IMG/VR virus record: IMGVR_UViG_3300043446_001855
Coordinates: 7,502-71,501 of that record
Direction: 5' to 3' (one strand)
DNA from: a virus
Length of the DNA stretch: 64,000 nt
Below the pieces are notes generated by a model. That model did no database searches and had not been told where the DNA came from. It saw nothing but the letters and a program-made list of their open reading frames with translations. Positions 13,752 to 63,175 of the stretch are shown here, one piece after another (positions within the stretch are counted from its first letter, which is position 1; every line of letters begins with the position of its first letter). Made by a program: the position numbers and the translations under genes.

Positions 13752-15005
13752 CTAACCGATTTTTGTTGCGGAAAAAGCCGACTGAAAATTCGCATTAGGA
13801 TGATACTGATATGTAGAGGCGTCTTGAGATCCCCAACAAGCAAGAAGAACTTTGACGTATTGTCCAGCAGTAAGATCGTATGTTCCAGAAATTTCTAGTG
13901 ACGCATTACTGCCGGCAGCAGGACCGATATGAGAAATCATTGAAAAATATTTTACTAGTGATCCGCCGGAATTGTATGCCCCAAGAACAAGATAGACTTC
14001 CCCATCGTCTGGTATGTAGTAGGTGATCTGCGCAGAAAACTGATACTTCCCAGAGGTATTTATGGTCACCCTGTCAGTGTTAGACGATGTGCTGTGCATA
14101 CTGTCTGTATCATAGGATTCTGCCGCCCAAGGTATTGGGGTATATCCGCCGCTCGCCGGGATTAGAGTGGCATCTGGATTGTATAATCTACACCCTATTA
14201 GAGTTGCACCAGCAGGTCCTGTAGGTCCTGTGGGACCGGTAACGTTAGATGCGGCTCCAGTAGGGCCTGTAGCGCCCTGAGCGCCTGTAGAACCGGTCGG
14301 TCCGGTAACTGTAGAGGCGGCTCCTGTAGGACCCGTAGGTCCTTGAATGCCTTGTGCTCCTGTCGGCCCCGTGACTGTTGAGGCGGCACCCTGTGAACCA
14401 GTTGCACCCGTGGGCCCCGTAGGTCCGAGAGGTCCCTGTGCTCCGGTCGGACCGGTGACTGTTGAAGCAGCGCCTGTAGCACCCGTGACGCCTTGAGCGC
14501 CCGTTGGGCCCGTTGATCCTGTCGGGCCAGTCGGCCCGGTCGAACCCGTAGGGCCTGTGACGCCTTGAGGACCTGTTGGACCAGAGTCTCCGATAGGACC
14601 AGTGGGACCGGTAGGACCTTGAGTTCCTGTTGGACCTGTTACATTTGAGGCAGCGCCGGTCGGACCTAATGGACCCGTAGGGCCGGTGGGACCGGTGGGT
14701 CCGGTGGGTCCGGTCGGACCCGTATTGCCCATGTTGCCCACAGGGCCAGTTGCACCAGTTGGACCGGTGGGGCCTTGCAAACCAGAATACTCATGCCAAG
14801 TTGTTAGAGCCGCATCATAATGAAAAATCTTATTCGTATCCGTCTCATAAATGAGCATATTGTCGACTGGCACGGCGGGGTGCGTCAACGATGTGCATAC
14901 GAAAATGCGCGAATTAAGATCATCTAGATTGACTCTGATCTGTTCCATGTCCGAAGAGGACAGGGTTTCACCAAAGTCAAATGGGTCTACCGGCTCAAAC
15001 GACAT
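13752..15005 (-). CDS. collagen-like (GPT repeat) fibre protein with C1q-like C-terminal domain
   Basis: Long Gly-X-Thr repeats; C-terminal YDTDSM...[10 protein letters not shown]...LTAGQYVKV...FSATKI. Start taken at MSFEPVD. Confidence 0.85.
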
Positions 15006-37320: not shown

Positions 37321-37395
37321 GTCCGCGAGGCAGGATTCGAACCTGCGACCTAGGGATTAGAAGTCCCTCGCTCTATCCACTGAGCCACTCGCGGA
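37321..37395 (-). tRNA. tRNA-Arg(TCT), no encoded CCA
   Basis: TCCGCGA acceptor, TGGCTCAGTGGATAGAGC D arm, AGGGA-CTTCTAA-TCCCT anticodon arm, GCAGG-TTCGAAT-CCTGC T arm. Confidence 0.92.
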
Positions 37396-43198: not shown

Positions 43199-43270
43199 TA
43201 GCCCGTCGGAGAATCGAACTCCGCTTACCGCCGTGAAAGGGCGGCGTCCTAACCGATAGACGAACGGGCC
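43199..43270 (-). tRNA. tRNA-Glu(TTC), no encoded CCA
   Basis: GGCCCGT/ACGGGCT acceptor, CCGCC-CTTTCAC-GGCGG anticodon arm, TTCGATT loop. Confidence 0.92.
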
Positions 43271-49776: not shown

Positions 49777-50625
49777 TTAGACCGTGGTCTTCTTCTTAGC
49801 GGAGGGCTTGCTGGGCTGCACCGCCTTGAGGTTGGCGAGCAGCGCCTCCTTGCTGGCCTCGGCCTTCGCCTTCTTGGGCGCAGCGACAGGAACCTGACCG
49901 CTAGCCTTGGCGTGGACCAGATCCAGCACCGCGTCCTTGAACTCGTTCTTGAATGCGAACGGGTCGAAGGTGCCACGAAGCGAGTCGACAAGAGCAGACG
50001 CGGCCTCGACAAGATCAGCGTCAGCCTCGCCCTCAATCACCGGAGCGGGATTGATTGCATTCGCCGTGTGCAGAGTGGACAGCATCAGACGACCGTCGCG
50101 GTTGTAGACAGCGACAGCCTGATGCTTGTTGCGAAGGACGATATCACCAACGCCAACGCTATCGCCAAGCATCGCGCTGACAAGATGATAACGACCTGTC
50201 GCATGCTCCTCGTCTGCCTTCGTTGCCACGCCAACATAGTAGGTGGCATTGAGCATCAGCGGATCAATCTCGTTCATCGCAACGATGTTCGTGATGTTCA
50301 CAGCCGAAGACTTCTCGGGGAGCAGGGCGTTGATCTCCTCCTGATCAAGCACAACGATCTCGTCCTCGGACAGGAAGAAGCCCTTGCGGATGTCGCTGCT
50401 CTGGAGGGCATCGCACTCCTTGATAGCGACGACCTTCTCGCCCTTGGAATCAAGGACAATCGAGGAGCCGGCAACGGTCGGGCGCTTGGTGCGCTGACCG
50501 TCAGGGCCGATCTCGCAGAAGGTCACCTTGTCCTCACGGTCATTGACCGTCGAGTACAGGGAGATGGGAGCATCGACAATGCCAATGCTCAGGGTAAGGT
50601 TGGACGCACCGGGAGTGGGTCGCAT
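49777..50625 (-). CDS. ku: Ku DNA end-binding protein
   Basis: LSIGIVDAPISLYS, IRKGF, EIDPLML..TYY, LMLSTL, FDP..FKNEF; basic tail. Confidence 0.88.
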   Translation of the reverse strand: MRPTPGASNLTLSIGIVDAPISLYSTVNDREDKVTFCEIGPDGQRTKRPTVAGSSIVLDSKGEKVVAIKECDALQSSDIRKGFFLSEDEIVVLDQEEINALLPEKSSAVNITNIVAMNEIDPLMLNATYYVGVATKADEEHATGRYHLVSAMLGDSVGVGDIVLRNKHQAVAVYNRDGRLMLSTLHTANAINPAPVIEGEADADLVEAASALVDSLRGTFDPFAFKNEFKDAVLDLVHAKASGQVPVAAPKKAKAEASKEALLANLKAVQPSKPSAKKKTTV

Positions 50626-50688
50626 ATTCTTTCTCCTTTTCTTGATTACCGGGCCGGGGCCGAAGCCCCGACCCGGCTCCTTTCATCG

Positions 50689-51714
50689 TCAGACTGCGGT
50701 GAGCAGTCCGTACGCCTTGTCCACGATGGTGGCGTTGCCGTCGCCCATCGTGCGGCGGAAGCGGTTCTCCTCCGCCGAAGCGCGCTTCGTCTTCTTGGAC
50801 GTAGCGAAGTGCTGGTTGTAGGTGGACACGGAGTTGAGCGCCCACCACTTGGTGTTCTTGATCGGCTCCATGTCCGGCAGGTTGACCTGCACGTTGCGGT
50901 TGCCATCCTCAACCCGGAGGTTGTTGTAGGCGATGGAGCGAATCACGTCCTGCGTGTTCGTGGCGATGGTCTTGCCACGCCCCTCCTCCTCGGGCATCGG
51001 CAGGAGGGACGAGAGGAAGGTCTCGAACTCCTGATCGGAGAACGAGGTGTGGAGCATCTCGTCCGCCTTGGTCTCGAACTCTGCCATGTAGTTGAAGACC
51101 ACACCCAGAGCGGTGCGAGCCTCCGACAGACGACCCGACAGCGACGACGTGTGGCGGACCTTGAAGGTGCGCTTCGCCGTGCTGAGGGCGAGGGACAGGG
51201 TGTTCTGGCAGACGACCCGGACAGGGGTCGCAGCCAGCGTGATCGCCGAAGAGCCGTCGTGGCTGTTCGACAGGAGGATGAAGGTGGCGAGATCCTCGTC
51301 GCCGATCTTCACCTCACGGGGCAGACGAGCCAGCAGCGAGACCTTCGCGCCATCCTTGAGCGAGATGACAGCCTCGTACTTGGCCTCGCCGCTGTCCACC
51401 AGATCGTCGAGGAACGAGAGAGCCTCAACGTTCTGAAGGATCTTGTAGCGCTCACCGACGATGGCAAGAGGCTTGAAGTCCTCCGACCGCACGTTGGCGA
51501 CGTAGCCCGGGACGGGAATGAACAGTCCCGTGTCCGGGTTCTTGGCGTAGACCGGCTCCGGCACGATGGGGGAGGCCAGTTCGGGGACGCGCTTGAGGCA
51601 GTCCTCGGCGGTCATCAGACCGTCTACGACAACGCCCAGCCCATGCCACGCGGGCTTGTAGGCATAGGCGGCTGCACCGGTACCATCGGCGCGGATTTCC
51701 AGTTCATGAGCCAT
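50689..51714 (-). CDS. DUF932 phage/plasmid-like protein
   Basis: MAHE, AWHGLG, VGERY..LQN, NSHDGSSA and TPVRVVCQNTL motifs. Confidence 0.88.
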   Translation of the reverse strand: MAHELEIRADGTGAAAYAYKPAWHGLGVVVDGLMTAEDCLKRVPELASPIVPEPVYAKNPDTGLFIPVPGYVANVRSEDFKPLAIVGERYKILQNVEALSFLDDLVDSGEAKYEAVISLKDGAKVSLLARLPREVKIGDEDLATFILLSNSHDGSSAITLAATPVRVVCQNTLSLALSTAKRTFKVRHTSSLSGRLSEARTALGVVFNYMAEFETKADEMLHTSFSDQEFETFLSSLLPMPEEEGRGKTIATNTQDVIRSIAYNNLRVEDGNRNVQVNLPDMEPIKNTKWWALNSVSTYNQHFATSKKTKRASAEENRFRRTMGDGNATIVDKAYGLLTAV

Positions 51715-60250: not shown

Positions 60251-60784
60251 CTAGAACTTGATCTCGGTGCTGGACTTCATGAGGTCCTCCAGCGTGAGCG
60301 CCGTTTCGGCGAGGTACTTGGCGTCCCCGTCGCCGGGGTGGACGACCTGCGGGAAGTAGCCCTCGTCGTAGAGGCGGTCGGAGATCTCCTTCGCCTCGTC
60401 GGAGCCCTTGTAGCCGACGAACACGTCCGCCCCCTCCGTCGAGTCCACGATCTTCTTCGCCTCGTAGAGGGAGAGACCGAAGGCGTCCTTGACGATCTTG
60501 ATCGCCGGGATCTTGCTCTTGTACCCACCCGACCGCCGGAGGATGTAGAACGCCGTCATCTCCGGCATGTTGTCCTCGGGGAACTCCGGGTACTTGGGGG
60601 CGAGCGAGTCGAACTCCGCCATGCCGTTGAGGATCGCCGTCAGGTCGCGGGCGGCGCGGGCAGCCCTCTTGTACTCGCCGTCCAGCACGTCCTCGCTGAT
60701 CGTCGTCTGGAGGACGCGCACCTTGGTGTCCAGCGCCATGAGGACGGGCGTGATCTCGTCGCGGGTGAACTTGTTGTCGATCAT
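60251..60784 (-). CDS. protein with ribosomal L7/L12 C-terminal-like domain
   Basis: SKIPAIKIVKDAFGLSLYEAKKIVDS...EAKEISDRL. Confidence 0.7.
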   Translation of the reverse strand: MIDNKFTRDEITPVLMALDTKVRVLQTTISEDVLDGEYKRAARAARDLTAILNGMAEFDSLAPKYPEFPEDNMPEMTAFYILRRSGGYKSKIPAIKIVKDAFGLSLYEAKKIVDSTEGADVFVGYKGSDEAKEISDRLYDEGYFPQVVHPGDGDAKYLAETALTLEDLMKSSTEIKF

Positions 60785-61508: not shown

Positions 61509-61609
61509 ACAATCCTTTCAATAGGGACACAGCGTTGTCGCCGTAATCAACGCCGACCTTACATCGAGGTTGATTACGGCGGGGAGCCGAAGCCCCCCGC
61601 CGGTTCGAT

Positions 61610-62035
61610 CTAGAGGGCGACGGCGGTCGCCTTCGGGGACTTCTTGGAGAGGAGCAGCATGATGCTGCGCCGCGCCGTGGAGTCCTTGATCGGGTGGTTC
61701 GGGCTGACGCGCTCCACCCAGAACGCCCCGGTCTTGGTGTGGTTCACCTTGACCGTCGTCTTCTCCTCGCCGAAGTAGGGCTCGCCCTTGTAGTTCAGGA
61801 CGGTCGCCGCCTGCTTCGCCGTCAGGGTGTAGACCCCGTCGGTGACCCCGGCGATGGACTCGCGCTCCTTCGCCGTCTTCGACCCCGCCTTGACCGGCAG
61901 GGCGAGGGTCTTGCTGATGATCTGGCTCGCCTCGTAGGTGTCCATCTCGGCGATGGAGTCCACCACGAAGTCGGCGGGGAACTCGCGATCCTTCTTGAGG
62001 CGGTCGAACAGGTCGATCTGCTTGTCGGTGGCCAT
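61610..62035 (-). CDS. early protein with MATDKQ N-terminal motif
   Basis: SD GAGGAG; ATDKQI...EASQII motif common in actinophages. Confidence 0.6.
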   Translation of the reverse strand: MATDKQIDLFDRLKKDREFPADFVVDSIAEMDTYEASQIISKTLALPVKAGSKTAKERESIAGVTDGVYTLTAKQAATVLNYKGEPYFGEEKTTVKVNHTKTGAFWVERVSPNHPIKDSTARRSIMLLLSKKSPKATAVAL

Positions 62036-62067
62036 GTTGGCACTCCTCTGGAAGCGGTATTGCTGAT

Positions 62068-62122
62068 TGCGTTTCGGCAGGCTGCCGTCATCAGGCTACA
62101 GGCACCACCCTGTAACGACGCA
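62068..62122 (-). ncRNA. type III hammerhead ribozyme
   Basis: TGCGTC^GTTACAGG-GTGGTG-CCTGTAGC-CTGATGA-C-GGCA-GCC-TGCC-GAAACGCA: complete core and all three stems. Confidence 0.85.
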
Positions 62123-62152
62123 GGGAGGGGGACTTTGCCCCCTCCCGTTGTT

Positions 62153-63175
62153 TCAGATCAGACCGGCGGCGATCAGCCCCAGCCTGATTTCGCGGCGGAG
62201 CCGGTTGGACTCCACGCTGAGGGCGTTGATGTCGGTGGAGTAGTCCACCTCGTCGATGATCTCGTCGATCATCAGGTTCACCGCCGTCAGGTCGCAGCCC
62301 AGCGCCCTGTCGTAGAGGTCGCGGATGGACATGTTGGGGTACTTGGGAGCGTAGATGCTCATGGTCAGTCCTCCTCGGTGAGGGAGTTGATGGCGATGGC
62401 GAAGCCGCGCTCGGACTTCACCGACTGTCCGCTGCGAAGCAGCGCCTTGCGGAACGCCTCCTTCATGGCGTCCGACCCCATGACGGGGTTGATCTTGATG
62501 GAGCGGGTCTTGCCGGTCTCGACCGGCTCGCTCCAGCCGTGGCTCTTGGCCATGCTTTCCTCCTTTGTGGGGTTTTACTGAAGCGGGGCGAAGCCCCGCG
62601 CCGTCGCGCTCGGTGCGGCTACGCCGCGAGAAGACTCTTGTTGAGCCTCCGCTAGCCCTTGTCGATGGGCTGCTTGCGAACGAAGTGGACGATGTAGAGC
62701 AGCGCCCCCACACCCAGCAGGGCGAGGACGATGTAGGTCTCGGGGCTGCCGATCTCAGCGCGGAACATCTGGGCGATGCACATGACCTCCCAGAGCAGCG
62801 TCATGATGAGGGTGGCGATGTAGACGATCACCTTCTGCGTGATGGTCATGCCTTCTCCTTCTTGCAGTCGGGACAGGACTTGATGAGACGTTCGGTGCCG
62901 TTGGGCTCCGTCAGCATCCACCGTCCTGTCTGCTGGGCGGAGTGCTGGGAGTAGTGAAGTCCGTCCCGCTTGGTGTGCTCGCAGGGGTAGAACTTCATCC
63001 GGTTGGTGTCGATGCGAGTCATCAGGACGCCTCCTCGATCTTGATGTTCTCGATGCGGAGCCTGCCGGGCTCCTCCTTGTGGTTGGCGAGGATGGTCTTG
63101 TAGTCCTCCTCGGTGCAGGTGACGCTTGCCACCTTGCCGTGGTCGTCCATGAGGTCGAACTTGTACTTCTTCACC
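62153..63175 (-). other. five small early ORFs (62153-62362, 62365-62553, 62652-62849 membrane, 62846-63022, 63022-63174)
   Basis: SD-preceded or coupled ORFs with high GC3. Confidence 0.5.

Follow-up and report, generated by a model that had tools for sequence, protein, structure and literature searches.

The stretch of DNA analysed here, called the window, comprises 64,000 nucleotides (positions 7,502-71,501 of the viral record IMGVR_UViG_3300043446_001855 in IMG/VR) and carries on its minus strand a 55-nt motif (62068-62122) with the anatomy of a type III hammerhead ribozyme, that is, one open at stem III. The full record of 71,501 bases is classed as linear and, with a CheckV completeness of 45%, is a fragment; all of its long open reading frames (ORFs) are on the minus strand. 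The motif is located near one end of the record, amid a row of small minus-strand ORFs without family. Upstream of it lies a gene for a protein of 69 amino acids (aa; 62153-62362, minus strand), and downstream a gene for a protein of 141 aa (61610-62035, minus strand), whose ATG occupies 62035-62033. The Shine-Dalgarno (SD) sequence of the 141-aa gene, GAGGAG (62043-62048, minus strand), is found 19 nt 3' of the motif and 7 nt 5' of the ATG, and it was unpaired or weakly paired when a context of 125 nt was folded. Between the 69-aa ORF and the motif, a perfect, G+C-rich hairpin of 9 bp with a 6-nt loop (GGGAGGGGG-CAAAGU-CCCCCUCCC; 62123-62146, minus strand; 9/9 pairs complementary) begins 6 nt past the stop codon and reaches stem III with a gap of 0 nt. 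No U-rich tail follows this hairpin on the gene strand. The stop codon of the 69-aa ORF itself lies within a UGAAAC sequence, which is used by Rfam's type II hammerhead alignment.

Within the motif, all on the minus strand, stem III is formed by 5 bp, UGCGU/ACGCA (62122-62118 with 62072-62068), and is followed by C17 (62117) of the GUC triplet. From the sequence and the H17 cleavage rule, the scissile bond is predicted 3' of C17, between 62117 and 62116, so that G1.1 (62116) is the predicted 5'-OH end. The stem I hairpin (62095-62116) has 8 bp, including one G-U, and reads GUUACAGG, loop GUGGUG, CCUGUAGC. It is followed by the core box CUGAUGA (C3-A9; 62088-62094), an extra C (62087) between A9 and G10.1, the stem II hairpin of 4 bp (GGCA, loop GCC, UGCC; 62076-62086) with the closing pair G10.1-C11.1, and the core box GAAA (G12, A13, A14 and A15.1; 62072-62075). 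All of the conserved hammerhead positions are thus present (C3, U4, G5, A6, U7, G8 and A9; G12, A13, A14 and A15.1; U16.1; C17), and A15.1 (62072) pairs with U16.1 (62118), followed by C 62117 as H17, which matches the core definition of Perreault et al. 2011. The three helices (8, 4 and 5 bp) are flush with the core, with G-C, G-C and A-U pairs at 1.1-2.1, 10.1-11.1 and 15.1-16.1, respectively, and no mispair; the core is interrupted at one place, by the inserted C (62087).

Most of this arrangement had been pointed out in the initial annotation of the window, and it was borne out on the minus strand: the CUGAUGA/GAAA core with one extra C before stem II, the GUC site with a predicted cut after 62117, the GC hairpin directly 5' of the motif, and the SD sequence about 20 nt 3' of it all lie where they had been placed. 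The minimum free energy (MFE) fold of 62125-62060 is a three-way junction. The z-score of the fold energy was just -1.0, and energy on its own therefore shows nothing.

The chance of such a motif arising by accident was assessed with a type III descriptor (CUGANGA, 0-1 extra base, GAAA, UH, and stems I, II and III of at least 4, 3 and 4 bp, respectively). Over the entire 71,501-base record, the descriptor returned exactly one site, the hammerhead at 62122-62068. In 300 first-order Markov randomisations of the record, it returned a single loose match in total and none of comparable quality (stems I, II and III of at least 6, 4 and 5 bp, respectively). The bare box pattern CTGATGA..GAAA is not rare, with 3 matches against 1.9 expected. 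Given that the boxes are common by chance, the significance of the site rests on the three flush helices.

Conservation of the motif in relatives

Nine metagenomic homologs of the 141-aa protein were found (P0002-P0009 among them), and the comparison at the DNA level was made with one homolog locus, L002, the only locus from the metagenome scan. The downstream protein of L002 is 48% identical to the 141-aa protein. Gene order is as in the window; the small membrane proteins of the two loci have 34% identity (E 9e-12), and weak similarity, with a short motif in common, links the upstream ORF to the 69-aa ORF. At the position equivalent to that in the window, L002 carries a strong hairpin, a hammerhead, and then an SD sequence and ATG. 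Its hammerhead, at 2914-2966, reads AUGCGU, C, GUGGUG-AUUG-CACCAC, CCGAUGA, U, GACAG-UCACU-CUGUC, GAAACGCAU. Compared with the window, stem I differs at 4 of 6 pairs, on both sides of each, and stem II differs at 1 pair; the GAUGA, GAAAC and GUC boxes and stem III are unchanged. At such protein divergence, scrambling would be expected of neutral DNA, and the kept boxes together with the rebuilt stems I and II therefore count as conservation. The two hammerheads also differ at two core-related positions: L002 has C4 and an extra U, and the window U4 and an extra C.

The two orthologous hairpins (62123-62146 in the window and about 2866-2897 in L002) have G-rich and C-rich arms in common (GGAGGG ... 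CCCCCUCC) within surrounding DNA that has diverged, and their 3' arm resembles an anti-SD sequence.

Searches of a GenBank phage collection with blastn and tblastn yielded no match to the region or to the 141-aa protein, protein-guided scans of the IMG/VR viral contigs yielded no relative of the flanking proteins, and the exact 25-nt hammerhead string had no match in the same contigs.

More distant relatives of the motif were collected with a pattern in which only stem III, GAUGA and GAAAC were fixed. The pattern matched 92 stretches in viral contigs and at least 120 in genome contigs; the 120 genome stretches listed contained one valid hammerhead (L133). Flush stems I and II were present in 10 of the 218 listed matches, window included. 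A covariance model was built from five of these ten relatives, with the window excluded, and it scored the window at 34.3 bits (E 6e-7). Guided by this model, an alignment of ten rows was made, from which L012 and a second, weak match in L061 were left out by the cut at E<=0.001; L025, whose stem II has 2 bp, fails stricter descriptors.

In this alignment, stem I was paired throughout (100%), and all six modelled pairs had changed on both sides. The covariation score was 0.504, compared with 0.109 in shuffles (none of 500 reached 0.504) and no more than 0.113 when partners were slid. Stem III had been fixed by the pattern, cannot vary in the ten-row set and is uninformative there. Stem II was off by 1 nt in the rows of the model-guided alignment that have no insertion; in a separate parse it was paired in 10/10, and pairs 10.2-10.4 vary compensatorily. 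The pair G10.1-C11.1 was present in all ten relatives sharing stem III, and the extra pyrimidine is therefore read as an insertion rather than as position 10.1.

Collectively, a complete core, three surrounding helices and a syntenic ortholog with compensatory changes lead us to conclude that the motif at 62122-62068, as judged from sequence comparison, is a genuine type III hammerhead-family element and not a product of chance, in agreement with the initial annotation.

The surrounding module and the extra base

The order of hairpin, hammerhead, SD sequence and gene, which L002 repeats, was looked at in a wider set of 94 distinct hammerhead contexts, from the window and loci L002-L426, drawn from 114 validated hammerheads in 91 loci. 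These contexts were chosen by hammerhead-like patterns and many of the loci are related, so that the counts that follow are descriptive and not independent. An ORF of 40 aa or more with a start codon and an SD sequence, on the same strand and within 60 nt downstream, was present in 75 of the 94 contexts, against 84 of 470 random places; the median downstream distance was 24 nt, and it is 32 nt in the window. In 47 of the 94, the upstream 45 nt fold with an MFE no higher than -15, against 63 of 470 random places (13%) and 351 of 2051 places after stop codons (17%). These 47 hairpins end 0-4 nt, with a median of 1 nt, before stem III. None of the 47 has a U-rich tail (at least 5 U in the next 8 nt). 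In the window (gap 0), L002 and L222 alike, the hairpin abuts stem III. The arrangement proposed in the initial annotation for a single site thus recurs, with the hairpin in 47/94 and the SD-led ORF in 75/94.

A classical intrinsic terminator on the gene strand was considered for the hairpin and rejected, as it has no U-run and none of the 47 related hairpins has one. A flush hairpin without a U-tract may help stem III coaxially, cap the 3' end of the upstream product, or do both. The recurring module fits the splitting of a transcript into an upstream RNA that would end in a hairpin and a downstream mRNA with a putative 5'-OH end. The early timing of the 141-aa gene and the polycistron, both named in the initial annotation, are assumptions. 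The presence of the hairpin in about half and of an SD-led gene in four fifths of the 94 contexts points to defined, protected mRNA ends in phage operons.

Of the 91 hammerhead-bearing loci, 22 hold two or three hammerheads, about 1.2-2.8 kb apart, around one or a few genes (for example, L234, L244, L245, L248, L253 and L265).

The distribution of the base inserted after A9 was determined by scanning IMG/VR with four equal-sized patterns (U4 or C4, combined with an extra C or an extra U), and the matches were validated by descriptor. With an extra C, 1 valid hammerhead (at 3159-3213 of L222) was found in the 14 loci scanned for U4 and none in the 17 loci scanned for C4. With an extra U, 53 were valid in the 68 loci scanned for C4, and at least 50 among the 115 loci listed for U4. 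The invalid loci, 13-17 per pattern, are as numerous as expected by chance and provide an internal control. IMG/VR therefore holds more than 100 valid examples with an extra U, and the extra C is seen in the window and L222 only. Among the matches listed, the normally invariant U4 is replaced by C in about half of this extra-U subclass of phage type III hammerheads. Examples from IMG/VR loci L229-L409 are those at 5370-5424 of L231, 5396-5451 of L244 and 3902-3955 of L300; another natural extra-U relative lies at 686-742 of L043. A covariation of position 4 with the inserted base, as suggested by the comparison of the window with L002, was rejected, U4 with an extra U being as common as C4 with an extra U. 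Eleven distinct hammerheads in the scanned loci had been chosen by no pattern; nine have an extra U and two have no extra base, in a sample biased to the extra-U subclass.

An inserted base at this place has precedents. According to Eckert and Weinberg (PMC10085705), 1-2-nt insertions beside CUGAnGA occur in known alignments, and a figure legend in PMC3705267 marks the plus-strand hammerhead of chrysanthemum chlorotic mottle viroid (CChMVd) as having an extra A. As for position 4, Perreault et al. (PMC3088659) state that a U4C viroid variant retains enough activity in vivo. Because more than 100 natural relatives have an inserted U at this position and published alignments are said to hold insertions of 1-2 nt, the inserted C of the window is treated as tolerated variation, by analogy, and not as a ground for exclusion from the hammerheads. 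In the literature searched, with supplements and subscription papers outside the scope, no prior description of the extra-U subclass or of a hairpin flush with stem III was found. The regularities at the level of the class, namely, an extra-U subclass with frequent C4 and a hairpin flush with stem III, are a more interesting lead than the single site. The contrast between an extra C and an extra U (2 against more than 100 examples) can also serve as a natural experiment on the effect that an insertion beside the catalytic G12 has on activity.

Proposed transcript splitting and its alternatives

The explanation that we consider best, with a probability of roughly 0.6, is that the element is a phage intergenic, self-cleaving type III hammerhead active in transcript processing and forms part of a hairpin-hammerhead-SD-gene module. 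Cleavage 3' of H17 is the established rule for hammerheads and leaves a 2',3'-cyclic phosphate and a 5'-OH. Both kinds of end are in general poor substrates for bacterial exonucleases and 5'-end-dependent RNases. In the proposed course of events, the 55-nt motif would fold while polymerase passes from the 69-aa gene to the 141-aa gene, and the RNA would cut itself between C62117 and G62116. The upstream RNA would then end in the 9-bp hairpin, UGCGUC and a 2',3'-cyclic phosphate, and would be a poor substrate for 3' exonucleases. The downstream mRNA would start with a 5'-OH G paired in stem I, that is, with a 5'-terminal hairpin and no 5' phosphate, and its SD sequence would be free 19 nt past the ribozyme. 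The two cistrons would thereby gain separate stabilities and separate translation. The upstream hairpin may also stack on the short stem III and aid its formation, and the extra C probably slows cleavage by competing for G12, without abolishing it. Processing of long phage transcripts was proposed for phage hammerheads by Perreault et al. 2011 (PMC3088659), and the idea is repeated in a 2019 review (PMC6765202).

A number of observations weigh against this explanation. The module counts, as said, come from contexts that are pattern-chosen and partly related. The Rfam scan gave nothing at gathering thresholds for a hammerhead. RF00008 (Hammerhead_3; gathering threshold 48.5 bits), which the initial annotation had named as the check to be made with Infernal, gave no match even at E<=10. 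As a control, four phage hammerheads without insertion, three canonical (L071, L061 and L049) and one with U4C (L073), scored 38.2-41.8 bits and are also below 48.5; the threshold of RF00008 is therefore insensitive for this group, and the silence of Rfam is weak evidence. The sole hammerhead match in Rfam was to RF02276 (Hammerhead_II), at 27.8 bits against a threshold of 37 and in a topology that fails. No RNA run was listed among the runs that contain the region. The strain comparison was made with contigs (Logan) of four other freshwater runs from four studies, at a likeness of at least 80%. The stretch 62068-62146 was unchanged in all four, without a joint and with the extra C kept; these strains are 1.5-2% diverged overall, only about 1-1.5 changes are expected in the stretch, and its invariance is therefore uninformative either way.

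The other points against concern the efficiency of the ribozyme. Loop 2 has only 3 nt, which is unusually small, and the complementarity between loops 1 and 2 is GG:CC (2 Watson-Crick pairs), which a G-U wobble extends to 3 pairs as GGU:GCC. Given the size of loop 2 and the 2-3 pairs available, the tertiary contact between the loops that is required for fast cleavage is uncertain in the window. Over 82 relatives, the longest Watson-Crick run between the two loops had a mean of 2.41, compared with 1.90 with permuted loops (maximum of 200 permutations, 2.06). As for the extra base, the rarity of C suggests selection against it. The hammerhead reaction uses G12 as its general base. In the nearest-neighbour model, pairing of C62087 with G12 yields the MFE structure, which lies 2.0 kcal/mol below the conformer that leaves G12 free, and in three extra-U relatives G12 is unpaired. 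Since it can pair with the general base, the extra C is a plausible handicap in this model, and activity may be reduced.

These last observations are the basis of the foremost alternative, which we regard as possible but doubtful: an attenuated or dead hammerhead, descended from an extra-U form, in which the change of U to C would lock G12 in a C-G pair that extends stem II, with negligible cleavage. The hairpin, by terminating or stabilising the RNA, and the structured leader would then be what matters. Such a loss agrees with the near-absence of the extra C in relatives (1/14 and 0/17 loci, against at least 50 in 115 and 53 in 68 for U), with the preference of 2.0 kcal/mol for the C-G12-paired conformer, which is the MFE, and with the U carried by the ortholog L002. 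In addition, the change of the extra A to C in the CChMVd hammerhead is reported to have been found detrimental by De la Pena and Flores in 2001. However, the rest of the core and the 17 helix pairs are all intact, where decay would be expected of a dead element, and the C is kept in the contigs from runs of four other studies, albeit in strains about 98% identical. L222, the second extra-C example, is likewise intact and has both a hairpin and a downstream ORF, and tertiary folding of the core can pay a penalty of 2 kcal/mol.

A more speculative proposal, which we hold to be rather unlikely, assigns the same base a function. The window would belong to a possibly undescribed subclass or module, with a pyrimidine inserted after A9, often C4, and a hairpin without a U-tract flush to stem III, which would serve as a maker of transcript ends, and the extra C would be a built-in attenuator. 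If this were true, the extra C, by competing for G12, would set the ratio of joined to split transcripts and would not be a defect.

The remaining alternatives were rejected. A chance resemblance, or an element of the plus strand such as an RsmZ-like small RNA or a terminator (on that strand, the hairpin is followed by GTTGTTT), is very improbable. The plus strand gave a match of 25 bits to RF00166 (PrrB/RsmZ; E 0.0006-0.016), the hairpin at 62123-62146 appears on it in a scan for terminator-like sequences, and chance would be in keeping with the fold energy z-score of only -1.0. Against this, the RF00166 score is far under 44, the gathering threshold of that family, the long ORFs of the record are all on the minus strand, the strand-specific boxes are conserved in L002, more than 100 relatives lie upstream of ORFs on the same strand, and the descriptor found one real site in the record, with 1 loose and 0 strict matches in 300 randomisations. 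Still less credible is a type II hammerhead, made up of GAAAC at the stop codon (62154-62150), the GC hairpin as stem III, then GUC, stem I and CUGAUGA, with an open stem II of distant strands: the RF02276 match (27.8 bits, with E-values of 0.001 over 401 nt and 4.7e-5 per genome) and the likeness of GCAGCC after CUGAUGA and of UGGUG in loop 1 to the type II consensus speak for it, but the score is under the gathering threshold of 37, matches to RF02276 below threshold occur in 11 of 14 ordinary control genomes, the strand before GAAAC (..GAUCU) gives at most 2 pairs with the bases after CUGAUGA, so that the open stem II cannot form, stem III would hold a 3x3 internal loop, and L002 has no GAAA upstream of its hairpin and keeps the type III arrangement.

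The record and known systems

The small proteins flanking the hammerhead matched no Pfam or PHROG family. The 141-aa protein, with its nine homologs, is a member of a conserved small family; it was modelled confidently by AlphaFold (AF2), with a predicted local distance difference test (pLDDT) score of 87.3, the model had no match in the PDB at E<=0.001 by Foldseek, and a search of the protein atlas gave no match to the protein above 0.9. The proteins encoded by the record include a tail sheath C-terminal domain, an M23 peptidase, an SNF2 helicase, Ku and DUF932. The Ku-domain protein (E 4e-13) and the DUF932 protein (E 1.2e-54) are encoded by adjacent genes at 49777-51714 (minus strand). A collagen-repeat protein is encoded at 13752-15005. 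A 177-aa protein (60251-60784, minus strand) matches the C-terminal domain of ribosomal protein L7/L12 (PF00542; E 1.8e-7; 31.8 bits, cut-off 25.9). Two tRNA genes are present, at 37322-37394 and 43199-43270 (minus strand), with 74.7 and 54.9 bits, respectively. Near-identical DNA was found in freshwater metagenome runs of several studies. Over the 1.1 kb compared between strains, the most variable part was the intergenic stretch 3' of the 141-aa gene (61564-61597), with six substitutions and one inserted base; it is covered by three of the four freshwater runs compared (X3, X4 and X6), and the hammerhead and the hairpin show no such changes.

That phage intergenic regions contain hammerheads has been known since 2010-2011. 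Among the known classes, type II (RF02276) is resembled in several parts: the GUC, stem I, loop 1 with its UGG, CUGAUGA and GCAGCC are all similar to the type II consensus. The topology differs: in the window a loop closes stem II, the open stem is stem III, and the open stem II of a type II hammerhead cannot form.

The plus-strand hammerhead of CChMVd (De la Pena and Flores 2001, J Biol Chem 276:34586; PMC3705267), which is functional, is likewise a type III hammerhead of natural origin with a single additional nucleotide in its core. It differs in that it belongs to a viroid replicon and not to a phage mRNA, in that its extra A cannot pair with G12, and in its role, which is the processing of rolling-circle multimers. 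The extra A of CChMVd lies between A9 and G10.1.

The closest likeness is to the phage and prophage hammerheads. The intergenic type III hammerheads of this origin (RF00008, clan CL00010; PMC3088659) share with the window the CUGANGA and GAAA boxes, GUC, three helices and ends in stem III, an intergenic site just upstream of a gene with potential pairs between loops 1 and 2, and the proposed role, in which long phage transcripts are cut to gene-length mRNAs. The window differs from them by the extra C after A9, the 3-nt loop 2 and the lack of a match to RF00008. Clustering of hammerheads was described by Perreault et al. 2011 (PMC3088659), and the two to three per locus found here in 22 of 91 related loci match it; the 71.5-kb fragment to which the window belongs has one hammerhead, whereas clusters are common elsewhere. 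With the extra-U subclass (C[U/C]GAUGA-U-G10.1), of which L002 is a member, the window shares the architecture, the position of the insertion, the abutting hairpin and an SD-led ORF about 24 nt downstream, and it differs by having C at the insertion, as in L222 only, together with the canonical U4.

Taken together, the element in the window appears to be an ordinary phage intergenic type III hammerhead except for a rare variant of a common insertion. The biological role of phage hammerheads was still called open in reviews of 2017 and 2019 (PMC6155905 and PMC6765202). Alone, the single site adds little to these known systems; its context, with the hairpin on one side and the SD-led gene on the other, gives a concrete and testable picture of what such ribozymes may do.

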